Shown here: positions 45,108 through 63,849 of the stretch, one piece after another
Position numbering within the stretch: position 1 is the stretch's first letter
Layout: each line of letters opens with the position of its first letter
Notes under the pieces: generated by a model
What the model saw: the letters and a program-made list of their open reading frames with translations, nothing else
Databases searched by the model: none
Told to the model about the DNA's origin: nothing
Position numbers and translations under genes: made by a program
Assembly: GCA_038127535.1 (NCBI GenBank)
Contig: JAYPHU010000004.1
Span: 14,232-78,231 of the forward strand
Source of the DNA: Rhodospirillaceae bacterium
Lineage (GTDB): Bacteria; Pseudomonadota; Alphaproteobacteria; Rhodospirillales; UBA2165
DNA: 64,000 bases
Direction: 5' to 3'

Positions 45108-45244
45108 GATTTCCCTGTGTTTATGTAGCGGCAACGTCCCTTGAACTTACTCAGCCAGCTTCCAGCGCTCAACCTCCGATCCCGCCTAGGAGTTGAAAAT
45201 TCCGCGATCCCGCCGCACAATCATCGCCAACAAAGGAAACCGCG

Positions 45245-46168: not shown

Positions 46169-46172
46169 GCGA

Positions 46173-47132
46173 TCACCGCGTGCGGCCCGGCCCGTCCAGG
46201 CCGACGTCTTCCAAATGCCCGAATAATTCCCGCAGTTTAGCCACATCAGCCTCCGGCAAGGGCGGTTTTAGGATCGACGCGAGATTGGGGGCCAGGTGAT
46301 CCGGATTGCCGGTGCCGAACAAGATCACATCCGCGCCCGGTTGATGGCGCACATACCGGTAGCAGGCGTCGATCACGCTTTCCGCGCCGCCCTCGTGCAA
46401 CAGGAACCCCAGCGGGTCATTGGCATCCACCTTGGCCGGATCAAGATCGCCCTTTTCAATCAGCTCCGCCACGTCGCCTTGGAGACGGCCCGGCACGCTG
46501 AACAGACTGCGCACCGCAAACATGATCTGCGTGCCGATCTCCAGTTCCATCGTTTTCGGAAACACCCGGCTCTCAGCACTTTGGTTCATTAAGGAATAGG
46601 CGAGCATCACAACGTCGAAGCAATTGTCCTCGAACGCGCGCTGCAGCATGTCGTGGCTGGGATCGATCTGGGCATATTCGCTCGCCGCCAAGTGCCGTAG
46701 CTTGCCTTTTTCTTTTTCCTTCAGGAGCGCCGGCACCACCTCGTCGATCACCCGGTCGTAAGTCTTAAGACTCAGTCCGTGGACATGGAATATATCCACA
46801 TAGTCAGTGTCCAGCTTACGGAGCGAGTCGTCTAGCCCATCCAGGATATCCTGCGCATCGAAATTGTTGCCGCCCCACACCGCGTGATGCTTGGTGGAGA
46901 TCACCACGGAATCCCGGGGCACCGCCTTAATCGCGTCGCCGACGATTTCCTCTGTGCCGTAGGAGCTCGCCGTGTCCAGCATGTTGACTCCCAGGTCCAT
47001 GGCCTGGCGCACAAGGGCCACCGAATGGCCGTGGCTTTTGCCCTGCGCCTGGCCTAGCCGCGAGCCGCCGCCGCAGCCCAAACCGGCCACGCTGACCTTC
47101 AATCCCGTCCGTCCGAGGGTGATGTAATCCAT
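46173..47132 (-). CDS. Aldo/keto reductase
   Basis: LGRTGLKVS..GLG, DTA..YGTE, ISTK, SL.KL.TDYVD..HVH. Confidence 0.88.
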   Translation of the reverse strand: MDYITLGRTGLKVSVAGLGCGGGSRLGQAQGKSHGHSVALVRQAMDLGVNMLDTASSYGTEEIVGDAIKAVPRDSVVISTKHHAVWGGNNFDAQDILDGLDDSLRKLDTDYVDIFHVHGLSLKTYDRVIDEVVPALLKEKEKGKLRHLAASEYAQIDPSHDMLQRAFEDNCFDVVMLAYSLMNQSAESRVFPKTMELEIGTQIMFAVRSLFSVPGRLQGDVAELIEKGDLDPAKVDANDPLGFLLHEGGAESVIDACYRYVRHQPGADVILFGTGNPDHLAPNLASILKPPLPEADVAKLRELFGHLEDVGLDGPGRTR

Positions 47133-47245
47133 ATGCTTTTGCGCCCATTTCCCGCCGCTGTCGGTCAGGCTTAGCGCCTGGATTCAGTCGCGGCAAGGCC
47201 GTAGGATATTTGGTAACGACCAATACCAAATCGGGGAGGAACATC

Positions 47246-47776
47246 ATGGTAGAGAAAATCCGGCGGCTGGTGACCGGCCACAATGACGACGGCCAATCGG
47301 TCTTTATCTTCAACGGCGACGCGACGGCGGTAAAGGAAATGGAGTCCATGCCGGGCCTGGCGCTGACCGACCTGTGGGTTACCAACGGCGCGCCGGCCGA
47401 CAATACCGGCAGTGTGGACGCCGCCGACCGACCCGTGGTGTTAGAGCCCCCGGCCCACGGCACGATCTTCCGCATTGTCGAGTTTCCGCCCGATTCCGCC
47501 TGGCGGGATTCGGCGGACGCCATGGAGGCGTTTGAATCCATCGGCGCTGGCCACGCCAAGGACACCGCCACGGATGATCCGATGATGCACAAGACCGCGA
47601 CAGTGGATTACCTGATCGTCCTCAAGGGGGAGATTTGGGCCATCCTGGAAACCGAAGAGGTCTGCCTCAAACAGGGCGACGTGATGATCCAGCGGGGCAC
47701 TAACCATTCCTGGAGCGTGCGCACGGAAGAGCCCTGCCTGCTGGCCGCCATCCTGGTAAACGCCGACCCGGTTTAA
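47246..47776 (+). CDS. Cupin domain protein
   Basis: RRLVTGH...G.S, MHKT.TVDY..VL.GE, GDV.IQRGTNH.W. Confidence 0.88.
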   Translation: MVEKIRRLVTGHNDDGQSVFIFNGDATAVKEMESMPGLALTDLWVTNGAPADNTGSVDAADRPVVLEPPAHGTIFRIVEFPPDSAWRDSADAMEAFESIGAGHAKDTATDDPMMHKTATVDYLIVLKGEIWAILETEEVCLKQGDVMIQRGTNHSWSVRTEEPCLLAAILVNADPV

Positions 47777-47780
47777 TTTC

Positions 47781-49310
47781 GTGAACCTTGCCGCACTCTT
47801 GGAGAAAGCCGCCCGCACCTGGGGCGACCGCCCTGCCCTGGCGCTGGGCGGCAGCATGGTCTTCGACTATGCGGGGACTGCGGCGCGGGTGGGACGGTTG
47901 GCCGGCGGCTTGCGGGACAGCCTCGGCCTGGCGCCCGGCGACCGGGTGGCCATCGCCATGAAGAACTGCCCGGCCTATAGCGACGTGTTGTTCGCCGCCT
48001 GGCACGTGGGCTGCACCGCGGTCCCCATGAACGCCAAGCTGCACGAAAACGAGTTCGCCTACATGATGGAACATTCGGGCGCGAAAGTCTGCTTTGTCAC
48101 CAGCGACCTGGCGGAGACCATTCACGCGGCGGCGGAAAAAGCCGGTACTGGCGTGCGCATCATCGACGCCGCCAGCAAAGACTATCAGGCGCTCTCCTCC
48201 TCGGACGGCATTTCTTTGCAAGACGTTTCCCCCGACGACGTGGCCTGGCTGTTTTACACCAGCGGCACCACCGGCCGGCCCAAGGGCGCCATGCTGACCC
48301 ACCGCAACCTCCTCATGATGACCGTCGGCTACTACGGCGACGTAGATTTGGTAGGCCCTGGCGAGACGTTCCTGCATGCCGCGCCCATGTCCCATGGCTC
48401 CGGGCTTTACATCCTGCCCTATGTGGCCAAGGGTGCATGCCAGTTGATCCCGGAAAGCGGCGGGTTTGATCCGGCGGAGGTGTTGGAGCTGTTCCGCGCC
48501 TATCCGGATGTGGGCTGCTTCTTCGCCCCGACCATGGTCACTAGACTGATCAACGCGCCGCAGATCGGCGACTACCGCCCGGCAGACCTCAAGACCATCG
48601 TCTATGGCGGCGGGCCCATGTATGCGGAAGACTGCCTGAAAGCCCTCGACATCCTGGGGCCCAAGCTGGTGCAGATTTACGGCCAGGGTGAATCGCCCAT
48701 GACCATCACCGCGCTCAGCCGGGACGCCCATTCGAACACCGCTCATCCCCGCTATCTGGAACGCCTGGCCTCCGTCGGCACGGCGCGAACGGATTTGGAA
48801 GTGCGGATCACGGACGAGGACGATAACCCGCTCCCCGCCGGGGAGATCGGCGAGGTCTGCGTCCGGGGCGACGTGGTCATGCGCGGCTATTGGGACAACC
48901 CGGACGCCAGCACCGAAAGCCTCAAGGGCGGCTGGCTGCACACCGGCGATATGGGCGTGCTCGACGCGGACGGGTTCCTGACCCTGAAAGACCGATCCAA
49001 GGACGTGATCATCTCCGGCGGCTCCAACATCTATCCGCGCGAGGTGGAAGAGGTCCTGTTGCGCCACCCGGATGTGCTGGAAGTTTCCGTCGTCGGCGAA
49101 CCTCATGCCGATTGGGGGGAGGCCGTGATCGCGTTCGTCGTGCCCCGGCCCGGCGGTGATCCGGCGGAGGCCGAGCTGGATCAGCTTTGCCTCGACAATA
49201 TCGCCCGGTTCAAACGGCCCAAGGCCTACCACCTGATCGACGCTCTGCCGAAGAACAATTACGGCAAGGTGCTGAAGACCGAACTTCGGGCGAGGCTGGC
49301 GGAGAAGTAG
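47781..49310 (+). CDS. Acyl-CoA synthetase (AMP-binding)
   Basis: YTSGTTGRPKG, IYGQGESP, GWLHTGD, DRSKDVIISGGSNIYPREVE, PKNNYGKVLK. Confidence 0.9.
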   Translation: MNLAALLEKAARTWGDRPALALGGSMVFDYAGTAARVGRLAGGLRDSLGLAPGDRVAIAMKNCPAYSDVLFAAWHVGCTAVPMNAKLHENEFAYMMEHSGAKVCFVTSDLAETIHAAAEKAGTGVRIIDAASKDYQALSSSDGISLQDVSPDDVAWLFYTSGTTGRPKGAMLTHRNLLMMTVGYYGDVDLVGPGETFLHAAPMSHGSGLYILPYVAKGACQLIPESGGFDPAEVLELFRAYPDVGCFFAPTMVTRLINAPQIGDYRPADLKTIVYGGGPMYAEDCLKALDILGPKLVQIYGQGESPMTITALSRDAHSNTAHPRYLERLASVGTARTDLEVRITDEDDNPLPAGEIGEVCVRGDVVMRGYWDNPDASTESLKGGWLHTGDMGVLDADGFLTLKDRSKDVIISGGSNIYPREVEEVLLRHPDVLEVSVVGEPHADWGEAVIAFVVPRPGGDPAEAELDQLCLDNIARFKRPKAYHLIDALPKNNYGKVLKTELRARLAEK

Positions 49311-49407
49311 GCTGCAAATATCGCCAATTTTCTTCGGGCCGACTCACCAAATGTTAACGAGTCTCCTCTAGGGTGTGATTATCCCCTTCACCCAGGAGAT
49401 ACGCGAT

Positions 49408-49557
49408 ATGTTTCTAGATTACCGATGGGATTCTGCGTCCAAAATGTGGATTGTCGTGGATACCCGGACCAACCAGCTTGTTTCCTCACACTGGACGGCC
49501 AACGAGGCCATCGATTTGATTATGCGTCTGGAGGTCGAGAAAGACCAAGCGGCATAA
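49408..49557 (+). CDS. Small hypothetical protein (49 aa)
   Basis: Strong RBS AGGAGA before ATG 49408; followed by a terminator. Confidence 0.55.
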   Translation: MFLDYRWDSASKMWIVVDTRTNQLVSSHWTANEAIDLIMRLEVEKDQAA

Positions 49558-49588
49558 AACGGCGCTCCTCCGTTACGCCCGGACGCAC

Positions 49589-49629
49589 AACCGGCCTCAC
49601 CGGCTCCCCCTCGGTGAGGCCGGTTTTCT
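49589..49629 (+). terminator. Rho-independent terminator
   Basis: AACCGGCCTCACCG-loop-CGGTGAGGCCGGTT-TTCT. Confidence 0.8.
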
Positions 49630-49653
49630 ATTGGGGGGATGGGTATCTACCCC

Positions 49654-50940
49654 CTACCCCTCATTAATCCCGGCGTAGCGGCGGAGGCGGATGTCGGCCT
49701 GTTCCTTGTGGCCAGCGAAGCCTTCCAGGGCGCAGAGGCGCGAGCAGTATTTGCCGATCTCCACCGAGGCTTCCTCGCTCACCTTTTGATAGGTGTGGGT
49801 CTTGATGAACTTGCCGACCCAGAGCCCGCCCGTGTAGCGCCCGGCGGTCTTGGTGGGCAGCGTGTGGTTGGTGCCGATCACCTTGTCGCCGTAGGAAACG
49901 TTGGTCTCCGGGCCCAGGAACAGCGCGCCGTAATTGGTCATGTTTGTGAGGAAGTAATCCGGGTCCTTGGTCATGACCTGCACGTGTTCGGAGGCGATCT
50001 CGTCGGCCACCTGCACCATCTCTTCATAAGAATCGCAAACGATCACCTGGCCATAGGTCTTCCACGCCTCCCCGGCGACTTCCGCCGTCGGCAGGATGGT
50101 CAACTGGCGCTCCACCTCTTTCATGGTTTCTTCCGCCAGGGCCTCGGAATTGGTCAGCAGCACCGCCGGGCTGGTCGGCCCGTGTTCCGCCTGACCCAAT
50201 AGGTCAGCAGCGCACAATTCACCGTCCACGGTCTCGTCAGCGATGATGAGGGTCTCGGTCGGGCCGGCCAGCAGATCGATGCCTACCCGGCCGAACAATT
50301 GGCGCTTTGCTTCCGCCACATAAGCGTTGCCCGGTCCGACTAGCATGTCGACCGGTGCAATCTCGTCCGTCCCCAACGCCATGGCGCCCATGGCCTGAAC
50401 GCCGCCCAAGCAATAAATCTCGTCCGCGCCGGCCAGGTCCTGGGCGACGATGATCGCCGGGCTCGGCTTGCCCTCGTAAGGCGGTGCGCAGGCGATGATC
50501 CGTTTGACGCCGGCCACTTTGGCGGTGACCACGCTCATATGGGCGGAAGCGACCATCGGGTACTTGCCGCCGGGCACATAGCAGCCGACGGAGTTCACCG
50601 GGATGTTTTTGTGGCCGAGGATCACGCCGGGATAGGTTTCCTCCTCCACATCCAACAGGGCGGCCTTTTGGATTTCCGCGAAGTTGCGGATTTGCGCCTG
50701 GGCGAACTTGATGTCCTCGATATTTTGTTCGGTGATCTGATCATAGCAGGCGTCGATCTCTTCCCGGCTTAGGTGGAATTTTTCCGGCGCCCAGCCGTCG
50801 AACTTCTCGGAATAATCCCGGAGCGCCGCATCGCCGCGCGCCTTGATGTCGTCGAGAATGCCCTCCACGGTCTGGCGCACCTGCGCCTCCGCCGTGTCTT
50901 TTTCCGTCTGAGAAACGCCTTCCTTGAGCCACCGCGCCAT
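49654..50940 (-). CDS. hisD: Histidinol dehydrogenase family paralog (HpsN/sulfopropanediol dehydrogenase-related)
   Basis: [55 protein letters not shown]; not in a his operon. Confidence 0.8.
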
Positions 50941-51101
50941 GATCTCCTCCACTCTTCGAAACGTGTGTGTCTGTTCGGTGATGAATACGGTTTCGCCTCG
51001 GATTCTTCAAGCCGCTAACGGGTATTTGATCCGGCGGTGTGGCGTTTACACCGACCGAAACACTTGCTACGGAGAAAACAGATATTGCGGGGAGGCGGCA
51101 G

Positions 51102-51866
51102 ATGACCGATCAGATCGACACCAAGAAAATTACCGCGGCGGTGGACTTTTCCGGCCGGGTGGCGCTGGTGACCGGCGCGGGCAAAGGCCTGGGCCGCGCC
51201 ACAGCCCTGGCGCTGGCCGAAGCCGGCGCGCAGGTGATCGGCGTGTCCCGGACCGAGGATGATCTGAAGGAGCTCCAATCCCACTTTACGGAGAGGATCG
51301 AGTATTGGGTCGAAGACGTGCTGGCAGAGGACCTTTACCCCCGGATCGAGGCTCTGCCCAGGCTCGATATCTTCGCCGCCTGCGCCGGGGCTAACCGACC
51401 GCTGCCCATCATCGAACTGACCACCGAAGACATCAACTGGCTGATCGCACTGAACGTCACCGCCGTGTTTCGGGGCGCTCAAAGCGCGGCGCGGGCCATG
51501 CTGAAAAACAAGTCTGGCGCGATCGTCATCATGTCATCCCAGATGGGCCATATCGGCGCGCCTAACCGGACGCTCTATTGCACCACCAAGCATGGGGTGG
51601 AGGGGCTGACCAAGTCGCTGGCGGTGGAGCTGGCCCCCGACGGCATCCGGGTCAACTCGGTCGCGCCGACATTTATCGACACGCCCATGACCCGGCCCAT
51701 GTTCGAAAACAAGCAGTTCAAGGAGACGGTGTTGCACAACATAGCGCTTGGGCGCCTGGGCACGCTGGAAGACGTAGCGGCGGCGGTCGTATTCCTCGCC
51801 TCTGACAACGCAGCGATGATCACCGGGGATAGTCTGAAAGTGGATGGCGGCTGGACCGCCTGGTAG
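51102..51866 (+). CDS. SDR oxidoreductase (HpsO-like)
   Basis: VTGAGKGLG, SSQMGH, YCTTKH, APTFI.TPMT, VDGGWTA. Confidence 0.88.
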   Translation: MTDQIDTKKITAAVDFSGRVALVTGAGKGLGRATALALAEAGAQVIGVSRTEDDLKELQSHFTERIEYWVEDVLAEDLYPRIEALPRLDIFAACAGANRPLPIIELTTEDINWLIALNVTAVFRGAQSAARAMLKNKSGAIVIMSSQMGHIGAPNRTLYCTTKHGVEGLTKSLAVELAPDGIRVNSVAPTFIDTPMTRPMFENKQFKETVLHNIALGRLGTLEDVAAAVVFLASDNAAMITGDSLKVDGGWTAW

Positions 51867-52888: not shown

Positions 52889-54244
52889 TCACATGGTCAG
52901 ATGGCGGGCGGTGATCACCACGATCCCGACCACGGTCACCCCAACAAGGAACAGCGGTGGCGACCAGCGCCAGCCGATGACATGACTGGGCACGCCTGTG
53001 ACCCGGGCCATAAACAGCGTGGTGCCGGAAAACGGTGAGATCATGGTGCACATGCCCCAGCAGCCGAGGTACGTCAGCCCGACAATCCAATCTGTTAATC
53101 CTAAGGCTTCCGGCGGGAAGATGGCGCTCAGCGAAATCACCAGAATGACCGGATGCAGACCTGCCAGACTGGTCACCGTAAATGTGATGATCAGCAGGAT
53201 CAGCTTGGCGTCCGCCCACGGCACCAGGGCATTCAACCCCGCGCTCAAATCCGCCGAGGGCAAAATGTGGGAAACGCCGACCCCGAACATGGTGGCCGCG
53301 CCGAACATCATGGTCTCGTTGCGTAGGCGGGGCAGGCCGGTGACCACGCCCTTCGCCAGACCGGTCAGACTAATCCCTTCCAGCGTCAATCGGTCCGATT
53401 GCATTTTGTACCAGAGAAGCGCGAACGGCGGTGCGACAATACCCAGCGTGATCGGGATGGAAACCAGCAGTATTTCCGCCGGCGTCACCACCAGGAAAAT
53501 CAGCGCCAGCAGAATCACCGAGGCCAGTAATGTGGCGCGGCCGTCAAACGCCGGCGGGCCGTCCGCCACCCGGCGGCTGCCCCGGCGTAGGAACAGCCGG
53601 TCGAATATCCAGGCGGCAAGAATCACCAGTACCGCCATCAAGAAGCCCGTCGGCGCCAGCTCGCCCCAGCTGAGGCTGGGCAGCGCCACCAGCACAACGA
53701 CCATGCCGATATAGAAGGGTGACCAGCAGGACGCACTGGTGAAGCCCTGCATCAACGCCACCGACAGCCGGCGTTTCTGTACCGGGTCTTCCTGTTTTTC
53801 CAGCACGGTGGTCAATAGGCTCAGCCCGGCCAGATTGAGAACCGTCCCCAGAAAATGCGCGCCGAACGCCAGATAAAGGAAGCGCTTGCCCGGCGTCTGC
53901 TCAACAATATAGGTGCGGACCGACTGCAGGGACGGACTCCGCTCCACCGGGTATTTCAGCCAGGAAATGGCGAAGAATAGCAGAAGGAAGAGACTGGCCC
54001 GGGCGGTGCCGTCGACAATGATGGCCCGCCATTCCCCGGAAACAGCGGCGCTGATTAGCGCGATGCCGATCATCACCAGCCCGGCAATCTTTTGCCCCCG
54101 CGGCAAGTCCACGAACTGCAAAATCAAAAACAGGATGATCAAGCCCGAAAGCACCGGTCGCAGCTCCGGTCCATAGACGAACGCGCTAATGACGGTCAAA
54201 ACCGAAATCGCTATGTAAATCCAGGCGGAAACCGGATTACGCAT
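52889..54244 (-). CDS. Polytopic membrane protein, probable secondary transporter
   Basis: About 12 TM segments; GF..A..WSPF, G.HP, SPFSG motifs. Confidence 0.7.
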   Translation of the reverse strand: MRNPVSAWIYIAISVLTVISAFVYGPELRPVLSGLIILFLILQFVDLPRGQKIAGLVMIGIALISAAVSGEWRAIIVDGTARASLFLLLFFAISWLKYPVERSPSLQSVRTYIVEQTPGKRFLYLAFGAHFLGTVLNLAGLSLLTTVLEKQEDPVQKRRLSVALMQGFTSASCWSPFYIGMVVVLVALPSLSWGELAPTGFLMAVLVILAAWIFDRLFLRRGSRRVADGPPAFDGRATLLASVILLALIFLVVTPAEILLVSIPITLGIVAPPFALLWYKMQSDRLTLEGISLTGLAKGVVTGLPRLRNETMMFGAATMFGVGVSHILPSADLSAGLNALVPWADAKLILLIITFTVTSLAGLHPVILVISLSAIFPPEALGLTDWIVGLTYLGCWGMCTMISPFSGTTLFMARVTGVPSHVIGWRWSPPLFLVGVTVVGIVVITARHLTM

Positions 54245-54385: not shown

Positions 54386-55105
54386 ATGATTGATCCGCGC
54401 ACGGAATTCGACCAGCTCGTCGCCGCCAACCGCATTCTCGCCCGGGAGGATGTCGTCGACTCCTTTGGCCATGTGAGCCTGCGTCATCCGGATGATCCGC
54501 ACCACTACGTAATGTCCCGGTCCCGCGCGCCGGAGCTGGTGGCATTCGATGACTTCATGGAGTTCGAACTGGACGGCGAGGTTGTCAACGACGATGGCCG
54601 CATGCCCTATGGCGAACGCATGATCCACGGGGCGATCTTTGAAGCCCGGCCGGAAATCAACGCAGTTATCCACAACCATGCGCTGGAAGTGCTGCCCTTT
54701 ACCATCACCGAGAACACGCTCAAGCCGGTGGTGCACACGGGCTCGGTCATCGGAGAAAATATTCCGCTCTGGGATATCCGGGATAAATTCGGCGAGAACA
54801 CGGACATGCTGGTCCGCACCATGGAGCAGGGCCGCGATCTCTGTTCCACCATGGACGGCAATCAGTGTGCGCTGATGCGGGGCCACGGCGCCGTGGTCGC
54901 CGGGCGGACCTTGAAAGAGGCGGTGATCACCGCGATCTATCTGCAGATCAACGCCAAGGTCCAAACAATCGCCATGGGTATGGGAACGCCGCAGCCGCTC
55001 TCCAAAGGAGAGATCGACGGCTGCGCTGCAGTGCAGTTTTCCCCCTTGGGCGCCGATCGCATGTGGGAGCATTTCTGCATCCGCGCCGGCGTGGAACCCT
55101 GCTAA
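54386..55105 (+). CDS. Class II aldolase/adducin family protein
   Basis: ANRILA....DSFGHVS.R, ER.IH..I..ARP...AVIH.H, LMRGHG. Confidence 0.88.
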   Translation: MIDPRTEFDQLVAANRILAREDVVDSFGHVSLRHPDDPHHYVMSRSRAPELVAFDDFMEFELDGEVVNDDGRMPYGERMIHGAIFEARPEINAVIHNHALEVLPFTITENTLKPVVHTGSVIGENIPLWDIRDKFGENTDMLVRTMEQGRDLCSTMDGNQCALMRGHGAVVAGRTLKEAVITAIYLQINAKVQTIAMGMGTPQPLSKGEIDGCAAVQFSPLGADRMWEHFCIRAGVEPC

Positions 55106-55947: not shown

Positions 55948-57489
55948 TCAGATGCTGCGCGAGCGGCCTTCCCAGTATTCTTCCCGAATCGCGTTCTTTT
56001 GGATTTTGCCCACGGCGGTTTTCGGCAGGCTGTCGACGAACTTGATCATCCGGGGCCGCTTGTGCCGGGCCATCCGGTCTGCGCAGAACGCGATCAGCTC
56101 TTCTTCGGTGGCTTGTTGTCCGGCCGCCAGCATCACATGGGCCGCCGGCAGCTCGCCCCAATGATCATCAGGAATGCCGAATACGGCGCATTCGTTAACG
56201 GCGTCATGCTGATAGAGAACGCCTTCGATCTCCGTCGGATATACGTTCTCCCCGCCTGAGATGATCATGTCCTTGGACCGGTCCACCAGGAACAGAAACC
56301 CTTCCTCATCCAGGTAGCCCACGTCGCCCGTCCTGATCCAGCCGTCGGCGGTAAACGCCGCCTCAGTCTCCTTCGGTTGTTTGTAGTAATGCATCATTAC
56401 GTTGGTGCCCCGGGACGCGACCTCGCCGATCTCGCCTGCCGGCAACGGCTGGTCATCGGCCCCGAGGATCGTCAGATCCAGGTCCGAGTACGCCTTGCCG
56501 ACGCTTTCCGGCTTTTCCAGGTTTGCCGCCACCGGGCGGACGGTCAGATTGCCGGCCTCGGTCTGGCCATACTGTTCCTGCCAAGTGACATTAGGCAGGA
56601 TTTCCATCTGCCGGCGCAGCTGGGCCTCGCTAGTCGGCGACGCGCCGAAATTCATATAACGCAGGGTCTTTAGCTGTTCCTTGGAGAACTCCGGATGACT
56701 GATGATGCCGTTGATCTGGGTCGGCACCATAAACGCCGCCGTGATCCCGTGCTTTTCACAAAGTCCCATAAACACTTTGGGGTCCCAGGCCGGCATCAAC
56801 ACACAGGTCAGTCCCATCAGAATGCCTGTCTGCATCCAAATCTGCAGCCCGGCAATATGAAACAGCGGTGAAGAGCAGCAGATGATATCGGTCTCTTGGA
56901 TATCCATCTCCCGCGCGGCGCGGACCGAGCCGATCACCCGGGACGCATGACTGACCACCGCACCTTTGGGAAAGCCCGTGGTGCCGCCCGTATAGGTGAT
57001 GCAGTAGGCGTCGGTCTCGGCAATCTCTACCTCCGGCTTGCCGTCCGGCGCATCGTCGAGGAAATCCTCATAGGTTTCCATCCCCTCGCCCGTGGCCTCA
57101 CCACCGAACACGATGACCCGATTCAGGACCGGCGAATCTTCCCTGATCGCGAGCACATTCTCCAATAGATCAGCGTGAACAAAGATGGCCTCGACGTCCG
57201 TCCGGTTGATAACGGCGGCCAGTTCCTCCGGCGAAAACCGCGCCGACATATGGGCCAGGACACTACCGGACTTGGCCGCGCCGAAAAAGATTTCGAGATA
57301 GTTGAGCTGATTGGCGGACATGATCGCCACATTGTGCCCCCGGGCGAGGTCCGCGTTGATCAGCGCATTGGCAAACCGATTGGCGCGGGCGTCTAGCTCT
57401 CCGTAGCTGAATTGCGCGTCTCCACAGATCACGGCCGGCTTGTCCGGCGCGCTGGCGGCCGCGTTTTCCAGGATATCTCCGGTAAGCAT
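55948..57489 (-). CDS. Acyl/aryl-CoA ligase (AMP-binding)
   Basis: YTGGTTGFPKG, YGQTE, GWIRTGD, DRSKDMIISGGENVYP, PKTAVGKI. Confidence 0.9.
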   Translation of the reverse strand: MLTGDILENAAASAPDKPAVICGDAQFSYGELDARANRFANALINADLARGHNVAIMSANQLNYLEIFFGAAKSGSVLAHMSARFSPEELAAVINRTDVEAIFVHADLLENVLAIREDSPVLNRVIVFGGEATGEGMETYEDFLDDAPDGKPEVEIAETDAYCITYTGGTTGFPKGAVVSHASRVIGSVRAAREMDIQETDIICCSSPLFHIAGLQIWMQTGILMGLTCVLMPAWDPKVFMGLCEKHGITAAFMVPTQINGIISHPEFSKEQLKTLRYMNFGASPTSEAQLRRQMEILPNVTWQEQYGQTEAGNLTVRPVAANLEKPESVGKAYSDLDLTILGADDQPLPAGEIGEVASRGTNVMMHYYKQPKETEAAFTADGWIRTGDVGYLDEEGFLFLVDRSKDMIISGGENVYPTEIEGVLYQHDAVNECAVFGIPDDHWGELPAAHVMLAAGQQATEEELIAFCADRMARHKRPRMIKFVDSLPKTAVGKIQKNAIREEYWEGRSRSI

Positions 57490-57605
57490 ACTGTCTCCCT
57501 GACCCGATTGTTCGGTACCCGAACAGATTGTGGACATTACCTTTGTGTCTCTCTAGCATTCAAGATAAATCCCGATGGAAGAACAAGACCGAAGCCGAGG
57601 GCCTT

Positions 57606-58628
57606 TTGAGTTTCAACATCAAAATCAGGGGTAAGGACGCCACCGTCGCCGTGGAGATGGGCCGAACAATTTTGGAGTCCGCGCACGCTCAAGGCGTTGA
57701 TTATCCCCACGGCTGCCGGTCCGGCAATTGCGGCGCCTGCAAATCCTTCCTGCTCAGCGGTGAAGTGGAAATGTCGCCCCGCTCAAAATTCGCGCTGACC
57801 GACGAGGAGGAACAGCGGGGCCTGATTCTGGCCTGCCGGTCGGTGCCCTGGTCCGACTGCGAGATCGAGCCCGCCAGCCGGGACGAGTTCGTCATGCTGG
57901 CAAGCCGGCGGATGACCTGCAGGGTGGCCGCGCTGGAAGACGCCACCCACGACATCAAGATTGTCCGGCTCGATGTGGAGTCCGGCGGGCCCTACGACTT
58001 CTATGCTGGCCAGTACGCGGAGATCACCTTCCCCGGACAGCCGGCACGGGACTTCTCCATGGCCAACCGGCCCGACGACGAGGTGCTGGAATTTCATATA
58101 AGGCTGGTCCCCGGCGGCTCGGTCTCCCCCTATGTCGCGAATGATCTCAAAGTCGGCGACGAAGTGGCGCTGAAAGGCCCGTTCGGCGCGGCCTATTACC
58201 GCGACACCCATGCCGGACCGATCATCGCGGCGGCCGGCGGTTCGGGCCTGGCCCCCATCAAGTCGATCACTGAGACCGCACTTCGAGGCGGCGCGCGACA
58301 AGATATCCTCCTTTATTTCGGTGTCCGGGACGAACAGGACATCTATCTGGAAGATCACTTCACGCGGCTGGCGGAGGATCACCCCAACCTCAATTTCATC
58401 CCGGTCCTGTCCGAGCCCTCCGGCGAGACGGACCGGCGGACCGGCTTCCTCGCCGACGCCATGGCTGCCGACTTTTCCGATTTGGACGGGTTCAAGGCCT
58501 ACCTTGCGGGCCCACCTATAATGGTGGAAACATCGGTAGAGAAACTGAAAGCGCTGGACCTCCGAGATCGGGACTGCCATGCCGACGCCTTCTATACGGA
58601 GGCGGAGAAAGCGGCGCTGAACGACTAG
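57606..58628 (+). CDS. 2Fe-2S ferredoxin:NAD(P)H reductase (oxygenase reductase component, N-terminal 2Fe-2S)
   Basis: CRSGNCGACK...LAC, AGQY, RDFSMAN, GGSGLAP, YFGVR, YLAGPP.M, DAFY; start probably TTG 57606. Confidence 0.88.
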   Translation: MSFNIKIRGKDATVAVEMGRTILESAHAQGVDYPHGCRSGNCGACKSFLLSGEVEMSPRSKFALTDEEEQRGLILACRSVPWSDCEIEPASRDEFVMLASRRMTCRVAALEDATHDIKIVRLDVESGGPYDFYAGQYAEITFPGQPARDFSMANRPDDEVLEFHIRLVPGGSVSPYVANDLKVGDEVALKGPFGAAYYRDTHAGPIIAAAGGSGLAPIKSITETALRGGARQDILLYFGVRDEQDIYLEDHFTRLAEDHPNLNFIPVLSEPSGETDRRTGFLADAMAADFSDLDGFKAYLAGPPIMVETSVEKLKALDLRDRDCHADAFYTEAEKAALND

Positions 58629-58644
58629 ACCAAGGGAGAGAGAC

Positions 58645-59592
58645 GTGAGCGAACAGCATCTGGCGCGACGGGCCGCCATTGTCACCGGCGGCGGCCGGGG
58701 CATCGGCAAGGCGATCTGCGAGAACCTCTCCCAAGCGGGAGCCTCCGTCATCGTCGCCGACAATGGCAGCGCTATTGATGGGGAGCCTGAAAAGCCCAAC
58801 ATTGCAGAGACCGTCGTCGAAAGCCTGCCCAGCGAGGCTGTTGCCTTTACCGAGAGCGTGGCCTCGCCGGAAGCCGCGAAGGCCATGGTTCAACTCGCAT
58901 GCGACACATTCGGCGGCATCGATATCGTCATCAACTGCGCGGCGATCCTTCGCGATGGGCTGGTGTTCAAGGGCGCGCCCGAGGACTGGGACACGGTCAT
59001 CCGCAACAACCTGTCGGCCGCCTATTACCTGATTAATGCGGCGACGCCGGTGATACGCCAGCAGTTCAAGGACGGCCGCGGCAGCGGCGAGGCGTACAAT
59101 TGGGGGCGGATCGTCAATATCGGCTCCACCGCCGGCCTTTATGGCAATTTCGGCCAGGCCAACTACGGCAGCGCCAAGGCCGGCCTGTTCGCCCTGACCC
59201 GGATCGCCGCCATGGAAATGATCCGCTCCAACGTTACCGCCAACCTGATCGCGCCCTTCGCTCACTCACGGGTGACCGACATGATCCAGCCGGCCAATGA
59301 CGAGCAGGCGGAATACAAGGCCCGCGCCAAGAAAGTTACCCCCGATCATGTCGCCACCGCCGTGGGCTATCTCTGTTCCGACCGGGCGGCGGACGTGACC
59401 GGCCAGGTGTTCGGTGTCCGAGGCCGCGAGGTGTTTGTCTTCTCCCAGCCTCGCCCGCTGGCGACCGTCAGCCGGCCGGACGAGGATTGGACGGTGGAGG
59501 CCCTCGCCGAAGCCGTGGATGCGGACCTTAAATCAAAATTCACTGACTTGGCGACCGACCTGGAAGCCTTTAATACTGATCCCATCGTTTAG
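58645..59592 (+). CDS. SDR oxidoreductase (3-hydroxyacyl-CoA dehydrogenase/MFE-2-like)
   Basis: VTGGGRGIG, AILRD, GNFGQANYGSAKAG, IAPFA.SR. Confidence 0.88.
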   Translation: MSEQHLARRAAIVTGGGRGIGKAICENLSQAGASVIVADNGSAIDGEPEKPNIAETVVESLPSEAVAFTESVASPEAAKAMVQLACDTFGGIDIVINCAAILRDGLVFKGAPEDWDTVIRNNLSAAYYLINAATPVIRQQFKDGRGSGEAYNWGRIVNIGSTAGLYGNFGQANYGSAKAGLFALTRIAAMEMIRSNVTANLIAPFAHSRVTDMIQPANDEQAEYKARAKKVTPDHVATAVGYLCSDRAADVTGQVFGVRGREVFVFSQPRPLATVSRPDEDWTVEALAEAVDADLKSKFTDLATDLEAFNTDPIV

Positions 59593-59601
59593 GAGGATCG
59601 G

Positions 59602-60318
59602 GTGACAGAAGTTCAACAGGTCGAAACCGTCGAACAATGGCGGGAGATGCCGGAAGAATACAAAGAGGCGTGCTGCAAGCTGGTGATCAGCCACGCGATC
59701 AATGAGCTATACGGCTCCCGCGTCTATGACGAACCGGCCATTTCCTGGGCGCCGAACCCTTACGCCAAGTGGATGGTCTGCCGGGTGGTGATGGAGGAAT
59801 ACGGCCACCATTACCGGTTCTTTGAGCTGGGCGTGGAGATGGGCATCCCGGAAGAGGCCATGCTGCCTGAGATGACTGAGAAGTCGCCGCTTTCCATCAT
59901 GGATTTGGAGCTCACCACCTGGGAAGAGTTCTGCACCATCAAGATGATTGGTGATCTGGGAGAAATCCTGCAGGTAGAGGACTTGGTGCAGGGATCGTTC
60001 CACCCGTTGCGCAACCTCGCCCGCATGACCATGCCGGAGGAGCATTTTCACAGCGAGTTCGGCGAGAACTTCTGCGCCGATATTTGTCAGGAGCCGGGCG
60101 GCAAGGAAAAGATTCAGGCCGCTATCGACCTGATTTTTCCGCACATGCCGGCCTTCTTTGGCCGGTCGGGGTCGGAGAACAATGAAATTTATCGCAAATG
60201 GGGCCTCAAGAAGCGCACCAACGAAGACATGCGCGAAGATTATGTGGCCCGCGCCAAGACTGTCGTCGAACGGCTGGGCCTGACCCTGCCTGAGGTCGAT
60301 CTGAGCGCCTACGGCTAG
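59602..60318 (+). CDS. Ferritin-like diiron protein, PaaA/BoxB (ring-epoxidase) family, stand-alone
   Basis: MPEEY, NELYG, WAP, EEYGH, W...D, EEHFH..FG, FG, WGLKKRTNE.MR; all six diiron-ligand positions appear to be present. Confidence 0.8.
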   Translation: MTEVQQVETVEQWREMPEEYKEACCKLVISHAINELYGSRVYDEPAISWAPNPYAKWMVCRVVMEEYGHHYRFFELGVEMGIPEEAMLPEMTEKSPLSIMDLELTTWEEFCTIKMIGDLGEILQVEDLVQGSFHPLRNLARMTMPEEHFHSEFGENFCADICQEPGGKEKIQAAIDLIFPHMPAFFGRSGSENNEIYRKWGLKKRTNEDMREDYVARAKTVVERLGLTLPEVDLSAYG

Positions 60319-60337
60319 GACCAAGGAGAGTAAGCAC

Positions 60338-61195
60338 ATGAAAATTTGCCGCTACGACGATGACCGGTTGGGACTGGTGCAGGATGATCAGGTCCTGGAT
60401 GTCACTGATGCGCTGAAAGCCATTCCGCCGGTGACTTGGCCGGCGCCGTTGGGGGACGCCTTAATTGCCAACCTGCCCGCGGTCATAGCGGAGATTGAGC
60501 GGCTCGCGCCCAATACATCGTCCAAGCCCTTGGCCGACGTGGCGCTGAAAGCGCCGGTGGCCAATCCGTCCAAGATCATGGGCGCGCCGATCAATTATCA
60601 AAAGCACATCGACGAAAGCAAAGTGGATGACGGCATCGTCTCCAAACGGGATATCAGTCATATCTCCGATTGGGGCATGTTCCTCAAAGCCAACAGCTCC
60701 CTGGTCGGGGCGAGCGACGGTGTGGCGCTGCGTTTTACGGATGCGCGGAACGACCACGAGATGGAGTTGGCTGTGATCATCGGTAAGACCGGCACCAATA
60801 TCTCCGTCGAAAATGCGAACGACTATATCGCCGGCTATGCGATTGGCTTGGACATGACCACCCGCGGCCCGGAACTGCAGAGCTTCCGCAAGTCCGCCGA
60901 CACCTATTCGGTGCTGGGTCCGTGGCTGGTGACCACGGACGAGATTAAGGATCACAACGCGCTGGACCTGAAAATCTCGGTCAACGGCGAGGTTCGTCAG
61001 GATTCCAACACGGCTGATCTTGTCTACAACGTGGAAAAGCTGATCGAGTATACCTCCGAGCGCTATACACTTTATCCCGGCGACATCATCATGACCGGAA
61101 CGCCGGACGGCGTCGGCCCCGTGGTCGCCGGCGACTTGATGCACTGCGAGTTGGAAGGCGTTGGGGTGATGGATGTGACGGTGCGCAACGCCTAA
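60338..61195 (+). CDS. Fumarylacetoacetate hydrolase family protein
   Basis: PSKI.GAP.NY..H, FLKA.SS, DHEMEL, D.T.RG, RKS.DT...GPW, PGDII.TGTP.GV. Confidence 0.9.
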   Translation: MKICRYDDDRLGLVQDDQVLDVTDALKAIPPVTWPAPLGDALIANLPAVIAEIERLAPNTSSKPLADVALKAPVANPSKIMGAPINYQKHIDESKVDDGIVSKRDISHISDWGMFLKANSSLVGASDGVALRFTDARNDHEMELAVIIGKTGTNISVENANDYIAGYAIGLDMTTRGPELQSFRKSADTYSVLGPWLVTTDEIKDHNALDLKISVNGEVRQDSNTADLVYNVEKLIEYTSERYTLYPGDIIMTGTPDGVGPVVAGDLMHCELEGVGVMDVTVRNA

Positions 61196-61304
61196 TGCGG
61201 TCCCGATGGTGGGAAAATACGGCACGTCCTTCCAGTTTAACTTGACTTCATTTCAGTTTCGAGATCGGCTAATCGCCCTAAGCTTCAACGTGGGAGTAAA
61301 GCTC

Positions 61305-62048
61305 ATGAAATCAGTCTTAATCGGCGTACTCGTCGCCGGTCTCGCCTTCAGCGCACACGCGGGCCAATCGGTCACCTACAAAGTCGATGGCAAGGACTAT
61401 GAAGGCTATATGGCCAAAGCGTCCGGCACATCCAAAGGCCTGGTCCTCATCATCCACGATTGGGACGGTGTCGATAAATATGAAGAGACCCGCGCCGAGA
61501 TGCTGGCCAAGCTGGGCTACGACGCGTTTGCCGTTGATTTGTTCGGTAAAGGCAACCGGCCGCAGGAAGTGAAAGCCAAGCGGGCGCTGACCGGCAGCCT
61601 GTACAAAAACCGCGACCTGATGCGGAAACTGCTGGTTGGCGGTCTTGAGACCGCGCGTAAATCCAGCTCCGGTAAGACCGTGGTGATGGGTTATTGCTTC
61701 GGCGGCGCCGCCGCGCTTGAAATGGCGCGTTCGGTCAAAGCCTCGAACATCGCCGGCTACGCCACCTTCCACGGTGGACTGTCCACACCCAAGGGCCAAA
61801 GCTATCCCGATGGTACGCCGCCGATTTTGGTCGCCCATGGTGGCGCCGACACGGCGATCACCATAGATCACGTGGCCACGCTCTCCAAGGAACTGGAAGC
61901 CAAGAAGATCAAGTATCAGATCGAGGTCTATTCGGGCGCCCCGCACGCCTTCACCGTCATCGGCTCCGGCCGTTACCGAAAGGTCGCCGACGAGCAATCC
62001 TGGTCGGCATTTCAGGACTTCCTGAACACCAATCTGCCCGGCAGCTAA
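61305..62048 (+). CDS. Dienelactone hydrolase family protein with signal peptide
   Basis: HDWDG, GYCFGG, FHG.L, HG.AD, YSGAPHAF; start ATG 61305 with RBS GGAG. Confidence 0.88.
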   Translation: MKSVLIGVLVAGLAFSAHAGQSVTYKVDGKDYEGYMAKASGTSKGLVLIIHDWDGVDKYEETRAEMLAKLGYDAFAVDLFGKGNRPQEVKAKRALTGSLYKNRDLMRKLLVGGLETARKSSSGKTVVMGYCFGGAAALEMARSVKASNIAGYATFHGGLSTPKGQSYPDGTPPILVAHGGADTAITIDHVATLSKELEAKKIKYQIEVYSGAPHAFTVIGSGRYRKVADEQSWSAFQDFLNTNLPGS

Positions 62049-62073
62049 GCCGAGGGAAGATTTAAGAATGGTG

Positions 62074-62108
62074 GGCCGGGTGCGGCTGCGTCCCCGGCCT
62101 TTTCTTTT
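62074..62108 (+). terminator. Rho-independent terminator
   Basis: GGCCGGG-loop-CCCGGCC-TTTTCTTTT. Confidence 0.65.
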
Positions 62109-62197
62109 GTACGTTATGCATGAGCCGTTCGGTTTGACCAATCCGCCAACGTCTCCATAATCGTGGCATAAACAAGTAACAGGGAAGGAAAAGCGGC

Positions 62198-63178
62198 ATG
62201 TCCCCCGTCATCGACGTTCACACACATATGCTCAACGACAAATGGCTTGAGACCATCCTCAAGCATGGCGGTGACTATAGTCTGAAGGAGCTCGGCGGCC
62301 AGCGGGTCGTCCATTATGAAGGCGCGCCGTTCATGACCCTGATGGACGGCATGTTTGACTATGCCGAACGCATCCGCGCCATGGATGCCGCCGGGGTGGA
62401 TATCGCTATTGTGTCCCTCACCTGCCCGAGCGTCTATTGGGGCGGCGAAGAGATCAGCGTCGCCACCGCCCAGATGATGAACGACGACATGGCGGAACAG
62501 CAGGAAACATACCCGGACCGCATCCGATTTTTCGCCACCTTGCCCTGGCAGTATCCGGACGCGGCGATTGCTGAGCTGAACCGGGCCAAGGGCAAAGGAG
62601 CTGTCGGCGTGTTTGTTTCCGCCAGCGTCACCGGCATGTCTCTCACCAATCCGCTGTTCGCCCCGATCTGGCAGGCCATCGACGAGAACGATCTGCCGGT
62701 TCTGGTCCATCCCGGCGCGCCCCCCGGCGTGGGCGAGATGGATATGGGGAAATATAACCTGGCCTTCTCCGTCGGCTTTATGTTCGACACGACATTGGCC
62801 GTCGCGCGGATGATCTATGATGGTTTCTTCGACCGCTATCAAAACGTGGACATCATCGCGTGTCATGCCGGCGGCGCGCTGCCCTATCTGCAAGGCCGGT
62901 TCGACACCGCCTTCGACAATATGCCGCCGTGCCGGGACGTGATCACGGAGCACCCCAGCACCTATTATGAGCGACTGTATTTCGACTCCATCGCCTACAC
63001 CCAGGAAGCGCTGGAACTGTGCTTCCATGTCTCCGGCGAGGACCGGCTCCTCTACGGCTCCGACTATCCCCACAATGTGGGCGACATGCCCGGCTGTCTG
63101 GCGCGGGTGGACGCCCTGCCCCAAGGCGTGCGGGCCAAGGTGCGGGGCGGCAATGCTCAGCGCCTGTTCAAGCTATAA
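62198..63178 (+). CDS. Amidohydrolase_2 family protein (ACMSD-like decarboxylase/hydratase)
   Basis: IDVHTH, R...MD..GVD, VLVHP, HAGG.LP...GR, YGSDYPH. Confidence 0.87.
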   Translation: MSPVIDVHTHMLNDKWLETILKHGGDYSLKELGGQRVVHYEGAPFMTLMDGMFDYAERIRAMDAAGVDIAIVSLTCPSVYWGGEEISVATAQMMNDDMAEQQETYPDRIRFFATLPWQYPDAAIAELNRAKGKGAVGVFVSASVTGMSLTNPLFAPIWQAIDENDLPVLVHPGAPPGVGEMDMGKYNLAFSVGFMFDTTLAVARMIYDGFFDRYQNVDIIACHAGGALPYLQGRFDTAFDNMPPCRDVITEHPSTYYERLYFDSIAYTQEALELCFHVSGEDRLLYGSDYPHNVGDMPGCLARVDALPQGVRAKVRGGNAQRLFKL

Positions 63179-63189
63179 GGCCCGGACCG

Positions 63190-63849
63190 ATGGCTGATCC
63201 CGCCGTTGACCGTTTGCTAAAGATCGATAGTGGCGCCGTCTCTGACGCCATGGATTCGATCGGCCTGTGGGGCACGGTGAACGAGATCAAACCCGTCGCG
63301 CCCACCAAGCGCATAGCGGGACGCGTGCAGACGGTCAAACTGGGCCCGGTCACCGATCAGGTGCAGCCGTCGCACCTATGTTCCGAAGCCGTGGATGCTG
63401 CCCAACCGGGCGACGTCATCGTGGTGGAAAACCGGGTGCGCCCGGACGCCGGCGGCTGGGGCGGCATTCTGTCCGCGGCGGCCGCTACCAAGGGCCTGGC
63501 CGGCACCATCATCGACGGCGCGGCGCGGGACGCGGATGAGAGTCTGGAAATGGGCTATCCGGTGTTCGCCACCTCGTTCATCACCTCGACGGCGCGGGGA
63601 CGCATCTCCGAACACGCCTGGAACGTGCCGATCATAATGGGCCGGGTGCATGTCGAGCCGGGCGATCTGGTCATCGCCGACAATTCGGGCGTGGTCTTTA
63701 TCCCGCAATCCCGGGAAGACGAGGTGATCGCCAAAGCCGAAGCCATCGCCGCCAAGGAAGCCGCCATGGCCGAAGCGGTCAAAGCCGGCAAGCCGGTCTC
63801 CCAGGTGATGAGCGGCGACTACGAGAACATGCTGAAGTCGGACGACTAG
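63190..63849 (+). CDS. RraA-like HMG/CHA aldolase family protein (LigK-related)
   Basis: AVSDAMD, AG...TV, WGG.L...A...G..G..IDG..RD, V.PGD.V.AD..GVV. Confidence 0.82.
   Translation: MADPAVDRLLKIDSGAVSDAMDSIGLWGTVNEIKPVAPTKRIAGRVQTVKLGPVTDQVQPSHLCSEAVDAAQPGDVIVVENRVRPDAGGWGGILSAAAATKGLAGTIIDGAARDADESLEMGYPVFATSFITSTARGRISEHAWNVPIIMGRVHVEPGDLVIADNSGVVFIPQSREDEVIAKAEAIAAKEAAMAEAVKAGKPVSQVMSGDYENMLKSDD

Follow-up and report, generated by a model that had tools for sequence, protein, structure and literature searches.

A stand-alone diiron protein of the PaaA/BoxB family in a conserved gene neighborhood: a predicted oxygenase that may feed the gentisate pathway

A PaaA/BoxB-family diiron protein and its described relatives

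To our knowledge, PaaABCE and BoxAB are the only characterized diiron oxygenases that act on the ring of aryl-CoA esters. Both lead to hydrolytic, non-oxygenolytic ring opening of the CoA esters. In this study, we analyzed a 64,000-nt stretch of DNA from a Rhodospirillaceae bacterium (hereafter the window; assembly GCA_038127535.1, contig JAYPHU010000004.1, positions 14,232 to 78,231), in which a 238-aa protein of the PaaA family is encoded together with a reductase, a short-chain dehydrogenase/reductase (SDR), an FAH-family hydrolase and an acyl-CoA ligase. We found that the 238-aa protein belongs to the PaaA/BoxB family of diiron proteins, stands alone and has a full set of metal ligands, and that the system is a conserved, apparently uncharacterized variant of this family with a new architecture. 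With a probability that we put slightly above one half (about 0.55), the protein is the catalytic component of an oxygenase that works without PaaB, PaaC and PaaD and feeds the gentisate pathway.

The locus resembles the phenylacetyl-CoA 1,2-epoxidase PaaABC(D)E of E. coli and Pseudomonas (3pvr, 3pw8, 4iit) in the PF05138 family, the ferritin-like fold, the six metal ligands, the probable CoA-ester substrate and the use of an iron-sulfur flavoprotein to deliver electrons from NAD(P)H. However, the diiron protein is about 25% identical to PaaA, is shorter (238 aa vs 309 aa) and belongs to a separate clade. The domain order of its reductase is the opposite of that of PaaE, which has the FNR part first and the 2Fe-2S domain last, and the downstream genes are those of the gentisate pathway rather than PaaG, PaaZ or PaaFHJ. 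With BoxAB, the benzoyl-CoA 2,3-epoxidase of Azoarcus/Aromatoleum (3pm5), it shares a catalytic diiron subunit without PaaB/C-like partners, the ligand pattern E, ExxH, D, ExxH and, putatively, a benzoyl-type CoA ester as substrate. By contrast, BoxB has about 470 aa, BoxA is a 4Fe-4S/FNR protein, and no BoxC-like crotonase is present in the conserved gene set. SSO1313 of Sulfolobus solfataricus (4mud, 'ring oxidation complex-like', 235 aa) is likewise a short, stand-alone PaaA-like protein with the same fold, although it is 21% identical to the diiron protein. BenABC with BenD is similar in its BenC-like reductase and, as proposed here, in a dehydrogenase that re-aromatizes a dihydroxylated, dearomatized intermediate, whereas the window has a diiron instead of a Rieske oxygenase, a dehydrogenase of the hydroxyacyl-CoA kind and probably a CoA ester instead of a free acid as substrate. 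The soluble multicomponent diiron monooxygenases (methane, phenol, toluene) are resembled by the reductase alone, and no MmoB/DmpM-type effector gene was found in the window.

Two CoA-dependent routes to gentisate, PhgABC and SdgABC, have a hydroxylase that is said to be a flavoprotein. As far as the available parts of PMC7862547 and PMC11848710 go, PhgABC of Brevibacillus converts 4-hydroxybenzoate to its CoA ester, followed by hydroxylation with a 1,2-shift and thioester hydrolysis. PhgABC and SdgABC (salicylate, Streptomyces) both pass, as is proposed for the window, from a CoA ester through gentisyl-CoA and thioester hydrolysis to gentisate 1,2-dioxygenase (same excerpts). Their hydroxylase is one gene, active alone in E. 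coli according to the excerpt of PMC11848710, whereas a diiron protein, a reductase and an SDR are found here; the two systems are set apart by description.

PF05138 was the sole Pfam family matched by the 238-aa protein. Its score against the PaaA equivalog model TIGR02156 was 81.7 bits, below the cut-off of 280, and the BoxB model was absent among its NCBIfam matches at E<=0.01. By sequence (phmmer), its solved relatives were PaaA (1.6e-14), SSO1313 (1.8e-8) and BoxB (0.013). The AlphaFold2 model, built on 42 homologues, had a predicted local distance difference test (pLDDT) value of 96.1. Foldseek matched this model to PaaA (TMq 0.87, E 1e-9), SSO1313 (0.82), PaaC (about 0.77) and BoxB (about 0.7), and the predicted four-helix-bundle, ferritin-like fold agrees with the PF05138 membership. 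A homodimer prediction scored 0.14, which is uninformative either way.

A preliminary description of this DNA had claimed that all diiron-ligand positions are kept and had quoted several PaaA-like and BoxB-like motifs. These motifs were read in the translation (MPEEY, WAP, KKRTN, SFHPL...EEHFH, FFG...GLK). The iron ligands E35, E66, H69, D118, E147 and H150 correspond to the identical residues E42, E72, H75, D126, E155 and H158 of E. coli PaaA, and the six positions were invariant or nearly so across the 42 homologues. The KxRTN segment is also common to both proteins. In the part of PMC4498308 available, PaaA has a lysine bridge near the metal site, formed by Lys68 with Glu49, Glu72 and Asp126. 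This bridge is not kept in the diiron protein (K68 of PaaA is V62, E49 is Y42). In addition, F108 of PaaA is replaced by M100, and the last ~70 residues of PaaA are missing.

The phylogeny placed the protein outside canonical PaaA, as the preliminary description had supposed. In a quick IQ-TREE maximum-likelihood tree, for which the careful search was not completed, the window clade (SH-aLRT 100) stood apart from the canonical PaaA clade (SH-aLRT 98), PaaC and BoxB. The tree had 76 rows: the window protein, nine close homologues, 63 cluster representatives (215-335 aa), E. coli PaaA and PaaC, and the BoxB of the same genome; 11 fragmentary or chimeric rows had been removed. Many further lineages of ~240-aa PaaA-like proteins, equally uncharacterized, are also present in it.

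The lack of Paa partners extends to the whole genome (3.53 Mb, 98.7% complete). If a true BoxB encoded on contig C13 is set aside, the window protein was the only PF05138 protein over the cut-off, so no PaaC was found; PaaB had no match, and the best match of the PaaD model (48.6 bits) was below the cut-off of 108. Similarly, no BoxA was over the cut-off genome-wide, and its top match was the window reductase, with 34 bits in the FNR part. A true BoxC (934 bits) and the true BoxB (797 bits), followed by an AMP-forming ligase, are encoded at C13:8405-13205.

The genes of the cluster are listed below. The positions given in the preliminary description agree with the open reading frame (ORF) coordinates and the Pfam matches.

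55948-57537, minus strand: AMP-forming acyl-CoA ligase, divergent (Pfam AMP-binding, 258 bits, and AMP-binding_C)
57538-57605, no strand: divergent intergenic region between ligase and reductase, 68 bp (from the sequence)
57606-58628, plus strand: NAD(P)H:ferredoxin-type reductase (Pfam order Fer2, FAD_binding_6, NAD_binding_1)
58645-59592, plus strand: SDR, 315 aa (Pfam adh_short)
59602-60318, plus strand: PaaA-family diiron protein, 238 aa (PF05138, PaaA_PaaC, 78.8 bits, cut-off 28.5)
60338-61195, plus strand: FAH-family hydrolase (Pfam FAA_hydrolase, 177 bits)
61206-62048, plus strand: dienelactone-hydrolase-family (DLH) alpha/beta hydrolase (Pfam DLH, 133 bits)
62198-63178, plus strand: Amidohydrolase_2 protein of the ACMSD / LigW decarboxylase kind (Pfam Amidohydro_2, 134 bits)

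The reductase, whose 2Fe-2S domain is of the plant type and N-terminal, is predicted to be the electron donor to the diiron protein. Its best NCBIfam models, BenC (192 bits) and MmoC (178.7 bits, cut-off 500), were both under their cut-offs, and its domain order is that of BenC and MmoC. The statement that it has neither the PaaE nor the BoxA order thus holds: the PaaE model covered the FNR part only (117.8 bits vs a cut-off of 420.8), and the BoxA model reached 34.6 bits vs a cut-off of 459. The ORF could start at 57528 or 57606 and ends at 58628. The start at 57606 is a TTG and gives 340 aa, in agreement with homologues of ~342 aa.

The top solved relative of the SDR was 2et6, a (3R)-hydroxyacyl-CoA dehydrogenase from yeast multifunctional enzyme 2 (MFE-2) (1.8e-67, 231 bits); the runner-up had 1.8e-39. 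The motifs TGGGRGIG and YGSAK (YxxxK) were read in its sequence, as well as an Asp at the end of strand 2 (VADNG), which suggests NAD over NADP. The SDR appears to belong to the oxygenase step itself, as its integral third component, rather than to a later step. The ligase scored 471 bits against NCBIfam PRK06187 (cut-off 476), and its best solved relatives were FadD5, a feruloyl-CoA synthetase, FadD13 and 4-coumarate-CoA ligase. Its likely role is to activate the aromatic acid that serves as substrate.

The five plus-strand genes from the reductase to the DLH gene are separated by gaps of 9-19 bp. Since the DLH gene, which starts 10 bp 3' of the FAH gene, is part of the same tight run, the right end of 61195 chosen in the preliminary description cuts the unit short. 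The Amidohydrolase_2 gene may be transcribed separately, since the gap in front of it measures 149 bp and contains a promoter-like site (62134-62161). The ligase/reductase intergenic region also has one promoter-like site, on the plus strand (57531-57559). Such sites were at chance level (4 found vs 2.4 expected), as was a terminator-like hairpin at 62084-62099 between the DLH and Amidohydrolase_2 genes.

Conserved neighborhood and the gentisate pathway

We surveyed the neighborhood of the diiron gene in two sets of loci. The first comprised 43 loci from species genomes; it was retrieved with patterns from the window protein and is therefore biased, and several of its contigs end early. Neighbors were counted by tblastn at a query coverage of at least 50%, as gene calling by codon usage misses genes in genomes of other codon usage (e.g. 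L097, L102). The second was drawn from 30 further regions of an even class sample, at least three of which are contigs already in the 43-locus set. It comprised the 23 loci with a diiron protein 56-73% identical to that of the window, which are termed orthologous here. The counts were as follows.

Reductase: 38/43 loci, directly upstream of the diiron or SDR gene; 23/23 orthologous loci
SDR: 29/43 loci; 22/23 orthologous loci
Gentisate 1,2-dioxygenase: 10/43 loci; directly downstream of the diiron gene in 18/23 orthologous loci
AMP ligase: 28/43 loci; 7/23 orthologous loci
MarR, placed between ligase and reductase: 12/43 loci; 17/23 orthologous loci
FAH: 30/43 loci
179-aa protein: 16/23 orthologous loci
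Amidohydrolase_2: 12/43 loci, 77-98% identity
Molybdenum hydroxylase large subunit: 12/43 loci
Enoyl-CoA hydratase: 12/43 loci
Thiolase-like: 11/43 loci
DLH: 2/43 loci

The linkage of reductase, SDR and a CoA-activating enzyme is thus conserved in both sets. The arrangement is not due to chance, because the reductase gene was directly upstream in 38/43 and 23/23 loci.

Three types of locus could be distinguished. In window-type loci, the ligase gene is followed divergently by reductase-SDR-diiron-FAH-(DLH)-Amidohydrolase_2. Defluviicoccus-like loci have no SDR, and their neighbors are genes for a molybdenum hydroxylase, a hydratase and a thiolase-like protein. In the third type, ligase and MarR genes are followed divergently by reductase-SDR-diiron-dioxygenase-179-aa protein, with a major facilitator superfamily (MFS) transporter gene and an FAH gene close by. 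Because the dioxygenase gene is directly downstream in 18 of the 23 class-sample loci, the third arrangement is the common one, with the window type as a variant that belongs to a single family.

The bicupin encoded downstream proved to be a true gentisate 1,2-dioxygenase: one example scored 549 bits against TIGR02272 (cut-off 442) and matched PDB 2d40 at 2e-119. Gene spacing in the dioxygenase-bearing loci is operon-like. The FAH protein of the window had as its top solved relative the maleylpyruvate hydrolase 6jvv (2.1e-56, 194.6 bits, full length over residues 1-282), and the next solved match had 150 bits. Its best NCBIfam model was under the cut-off, and about 10 other FAH paralogues are present in the genome. 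In window-like loci, an FAH orthologue 66-97% identical lies directly 3' of the diiron gene. From these matches, the window FAH probably hydrolyzes maleylpyruvate (or fumarylpyruvate) and would thus act at the end of the gentisate pathway. Taken together, the dioxygenase gene next to the diiron gene and the FAH protein closest to maleylpyruvate hydrolase indicate that the ring is most likely cleaved as free gentisate.

The genome of the window has a gentisate dioxygenase over the cut-off on another contig (C26:34004-35020, 487 bits). Its neighbors are an MFS transporter, a sulfatase and a UbiX-like flavoprotein, and no FAH gene adjoins it. This genome would then have a split gentisate pathway, with the dioxygenase of C26 and the FAH of the window. 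Gentisate dioxygenase was over the cut-off in 39/43 carrier genomes. Such co-occurrence at the genome level follows kinship and was given little weight as support; being confounded in this way, it was set aside, and we relied on gene adjacency instead.

CoA-activating genes were found within 9 kb in 14/23 orthologous loci. Seven loci have the AMP-forming ligase, and seven others, all without it, have an unrelated ADP-forming acyl-CoA synthetase (CoA_binding_2, Succ_CoA_lig, Ligase_CoA_2) in or beside the operon, one match being partial. The swapping of one CoA-activating enzyme for an unrelated one argues for a CoA-ester substrate. Considering also the hydroxyacyl-CoA kind of SDR and the KxRTN segment shared with PaaA, the substrate is probably a CoA ester. 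Several class-sample loci have a tripartite ATP-independent periplasmic (TRAP) transporter upstream, which fits the uptake of a carboxylic acid. The best solved relatives of the DLH protein were dienelactone hydrolases (5e-21), and it may be considered a candidate thioesterase for the CoA-ester product. The top solved relative of the Amidohydrolase_2 protein was ACMSD (1.4e-39), followed by LigW, IDCase and gamma-resorcylate decarboxylase.

Some locus types contain genes of other kinds. The SDR-less loci (L013-L016, L019, L021, L023, L025, L029, L031, L045, L046) have the reductase-diiron pair convergent to a three-subunit molybdenum hydroxylase, a hydratase, a thiolase-like gene and a gene for a 396-aa protein without a Pfam match. 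In a fourth variant (L012, L017, L030, L034), the diiron gene is followed by genes for a 413-aa protein without a Pfam match, a 201-aa glyoxalase/dioxygenase-fold protein, a 94-aa protein (weak MmoB/DmpM match, E 0.037) and an OsmC-like protein. The 179-aa protein (L042:8710-9249, L041:8709-9248, L032:6075-6605) is Ala-rich and helical, with the conserved segments GAAAVAAAR, RVAAGAA and LFAGGRWPLG, and its gene lies 3' of the gentisate dioxygenase or the diiron gene. It had no Pfam or NCBIfam match even at E 5, and Atlas gave hypothetical clusters only. Its AlphaFold2 model (pLDDT 74.9) had no Foldseek match at E<=0.001. A similarity to an Rhs immunity protein (VIA-align Z 9.1) was in the chance range for helical bundles and was rejected. 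A search with one homologue as query did not find the 179-aa protein in the genome of the window.

Proposed route and rival explanations

The following route could be proposed. The ligase (in other lineages, the ADP-forming acyl-CoA synthetase) would convert an aromatic, benzoate-type acid to its CoA thioester. The Fer2-FAD-NAD reductase would pass electrons from NAD(P)H to the diiron center, which would oxygenate the ring of the CoA ester. The intermediate would be an oxygenated, dearomatized CoA ester, possibly an epoxide and then, after addition of water, a hydroxy-diene. In a benzoyl-type CoA ester, ring C2 is the beta carbon, so an SDR of the (3R)-hydroxyacyl-CoA type could oxidize a hydroxyl group at C2. 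The MFE-2-like, NAD-type SDR would thus act beta to the thioester, and re-aromatization would give gentisyl-CoA. Thioester hydrolysis, for which the DLH-like hydrolase is a candidate, would release gentisate. The gentisate 1,2-dioxygenase encoded on the other contig would then open the ring, and the FAH enzyme of the operon would hydrolyze maleylpyruvate. In this route, the CoA-ester substrate, gentisyl-CoA as the product, the part played by the SDR and an epoxide or dihydrodiol as intermediate are inferred. The specific version from benzoyl-CoA through an epoxide to gentisyl-CoA is tentative, with the odds against it. It would be a net dihydroxylation, by epoxidation, addition of water and dehydrogenative re-aromatization, and the single-subunit oxygenase with its dedicated dehydrogenase would then be a third architecture among the diiron aryl-CoA oxygenases.

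Several observations weigh against a CoA-dependent oxygenase that feeds the gentisate pathway by this route. No gentisate dioxygenase gene adjoins the diiron gene in the window itself. The 12 Defluviicoccus-like loci lack both the SDR and the dioxygenase and have the molybdenum hydroxylase, enoyl-CoA hydratase and thiolase-like gene alongside. In 9/23 orthologous loci, no CoA-activating gene was found with two queries. Between the three locus types, the FAH genes share only 31-37% identity and differ in their best solved relatives, so FAH may not mean the same step everywhere. No benzoate-CoA-ligase-type chain was among the 60 best solved relatives listed for the ligase, and no thioesterase was identified for the proposed route. 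Direct aromatic hydroxylation needs no SDR, and the role proposed for the SDR comes from family resemblance only. In an order sample, 14/15 genomes of the family of the window had a dioxygenase-like gene (E<=1e-120) irrespective of the diiron gene, which was present in 6/15. Searches of full-text literature, with subscription journals and supplements out of reach, found neither a description of a short, stand-alone PaaA-like oxygenase or of a diiron gentisate route nor biochemistry for any member of the family.

The main rival explanation dispenses with the SDR, which would be accessory or unrelated. The diiron protein and the reductase would hydroxylate a hydroxybenzoyl-CoA directly to gentisyl-CoA (salicylyl-CoA at C5, 3-hydroxybenzoyl-CoA at C6, or 4-hydroxybenzoyl-CoA at C1 with acyl migration), so that it would be the diiron counterpart of the single-gene hydroxylases already known. 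The same linkage to gentisate dioxygenase and CoA-activating enzymes speaks for this reading, and CoA-dependent routes from hydroxybenzoates to gentisate are known from the available parts of PMC7862547 and PMC11848710. Moreover, the genome already has BoxB and BoxC for benzoyl-CoA, so plain benzoate may not be the substrate. However, the SDR gene is placed between the reductase and diiron genes in 22 of the 23 orthologous loci, overlapping or at a 13-bp spacing, which would be difficult to account for with an SDR that takes no part in the step. In addition, the characterized relatives PaaA and BoxB are established as ring epoxidases rather than hydroxylases (see also the available part of PMC4498308). 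We consider direct hydroxylation unlikely. The preliminary description had proposed something different, a Box/Paa-like dearomatization in which no ring-cleaving dioxygenase takes part in opening the epoxide. The SDR would act on a ring-opened or hydrated 3-hydroxyacyl-CoA, the FAH protein would split a C-C bond of a diketo intermediate, and the gentisate dioxygenase would serve another branch. This agrees with the PaaA/BoxB ancestry, the beta-oxidation (MFE-2) kind of SDR, the FAH gene near the diiron gene in 30/43 loci, the lack of a dioxygenase in the window, and the enoyl-CoA hydratase and thiolase-like genes that adjoin the SDR-less loci. It conflicts with the operon-like run in which a true gentisate dioxygenase gene directly follows the diiron gene, and with the FAH of the window, which is nearest to maleylpyruvate hydrolase, whose substrate is the product of the dioxygenase; also, no crotonase-type ring-opener (BoxC or PaaG/PaaZ-like) is found in the conserved set. 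Thus, the stand-alone diiron protein with its own reductase stands, while the CoA-dependent hydrolytic ring opening by the SDR and FAH does not fit these findings, and we regard the latter as improbable.

It might also be asked whether the oxygenase attacks the ring at all. The ligase resembles FadD, feruloyl-CoA and 4-coumarate-CoA ligases, the SDR is closest to a (3R)-hydroxyacyl-CoA dehydrogenase, and distant diiron-reductase paralogues adjoin ligase and thiolase-like genes. These similarities would suit a side-chain oxygenase whose target is the beta carbon of an arylpropionyl-CoA or alicyclic acyl-CoA, to be hydroxylated or desaturated, after which the SDR would yield a 3-oxoacyl-CoA and a hydrolase or thiolase would free a benzoate-type acid into the gentisate pathway. 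However, neither a hydratase nor a thiolase belongs to the conserved set of the orthologous loci, ordinary beta-oxidation needs no O2, and the known relatives attack the ring. A side-chain oxygenase therefore seems very improbable.

If the ring oxygenase favored here feeds the gentisate pathway, it would be a simpler architecture, with one catalytic subunit, a BenC-type reductase and a dehydrogenase, and would join CoA-ester oxygenation to a classical dioxygenase pathway via gentisate. A benzoyl-CoA-to-gentisate route was reportedly described decades ago in thermophilic Bacillus and haloarchaea, and the benzoyl-CoA/epoxide version, if true, would supply its missing genes. The small, soluble-looking enzyme set could also serve for making gentisate-type compounds.

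Distribution and flanking genes

Of 1510 candidates from a word-indexed protein search with the diiron protein, 1324 matched at E<=0.001. The best 120 of the 1324 had 63-99% identity and 196-246 aa, and were unnamed or named PaaA or 'phenylacetic acid catabolic protein'. The current annotation as PaaA would wrongly predict phenylacetate catabolism. An exhaustive search of 50%-identity representatives gave 400 matches at E<=0.001, of which 28 were at E<=1e-30. In the even class sample, 31/401 genomes (23/308 genera) had a homologue at E<=1e-40, a tally that includes G481, a genome flagged as unpublished. In the order of the window, the diiron gene was found in 7/201 genomes and in one family only. 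The 43 loci all came from metagenome-assembled genomes, mostly of marine Rhodospirillaceae-like and other alphaproteobacteria, with some Defluviicoccus, a few Betaproteobacteria and one Chloroflexota. As the system is common in the class sample and its carriers belong to many marine and wastewater lineages and some Betaproteobacteria, it may account for an unrecognized share of aromatic-acid turnover.

Distant diiron paralogues, 26-31% identical, were found in loci L111-L117 (G609, G522, G369, G471, G300, G292). A reductase match lies beside the diiron gene in 5/7 of them, downstream instead of upstream, and an AMP ligase and a thiolase-like gene are alongside in 3/7. This suggests a wider set of uncharacterized two-component PaaA-like acyl-CoA oxygenases.

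DNA near-identical to positions 55948-63178 of the window was present in estuary, marine and biofilm metagenomes from several studies. Six short contigs of 117-264 nt from a single marine poly(A) RNA library matched the locus with 0-3 mismatches. They cover parts of the reductase gene, the DLH gene and the 3' genes, and one of them bridges the diiron/FAH gene junction (60192-60363). These contigs were not counted as proof of expression: DNA carry-over is possible, and they give no expression levels.

Further catabolic genes flank the cluster at 44124-51866. They encode a Zn-dependent alcohol dehydrogenase, a two-domain glyoxalase-fold (extradiol-dioxygenase-like) protein, an aldo/keto reductase, a cupin, a second AMP ligase, a histidinol-dehydrogenase-family protein and a second SDR. 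A class II aldolase-like gene is located at 54386-55105, and an RraA-like aldolase gene lies 3' of the cluster (63019-63849). A 451-aa ORF on the minus strand (52889-54244) was without a Pfam or NCBIfam match; it is kept in place in the related loci L006 and L007, with 93% and 56% identity, respectively.

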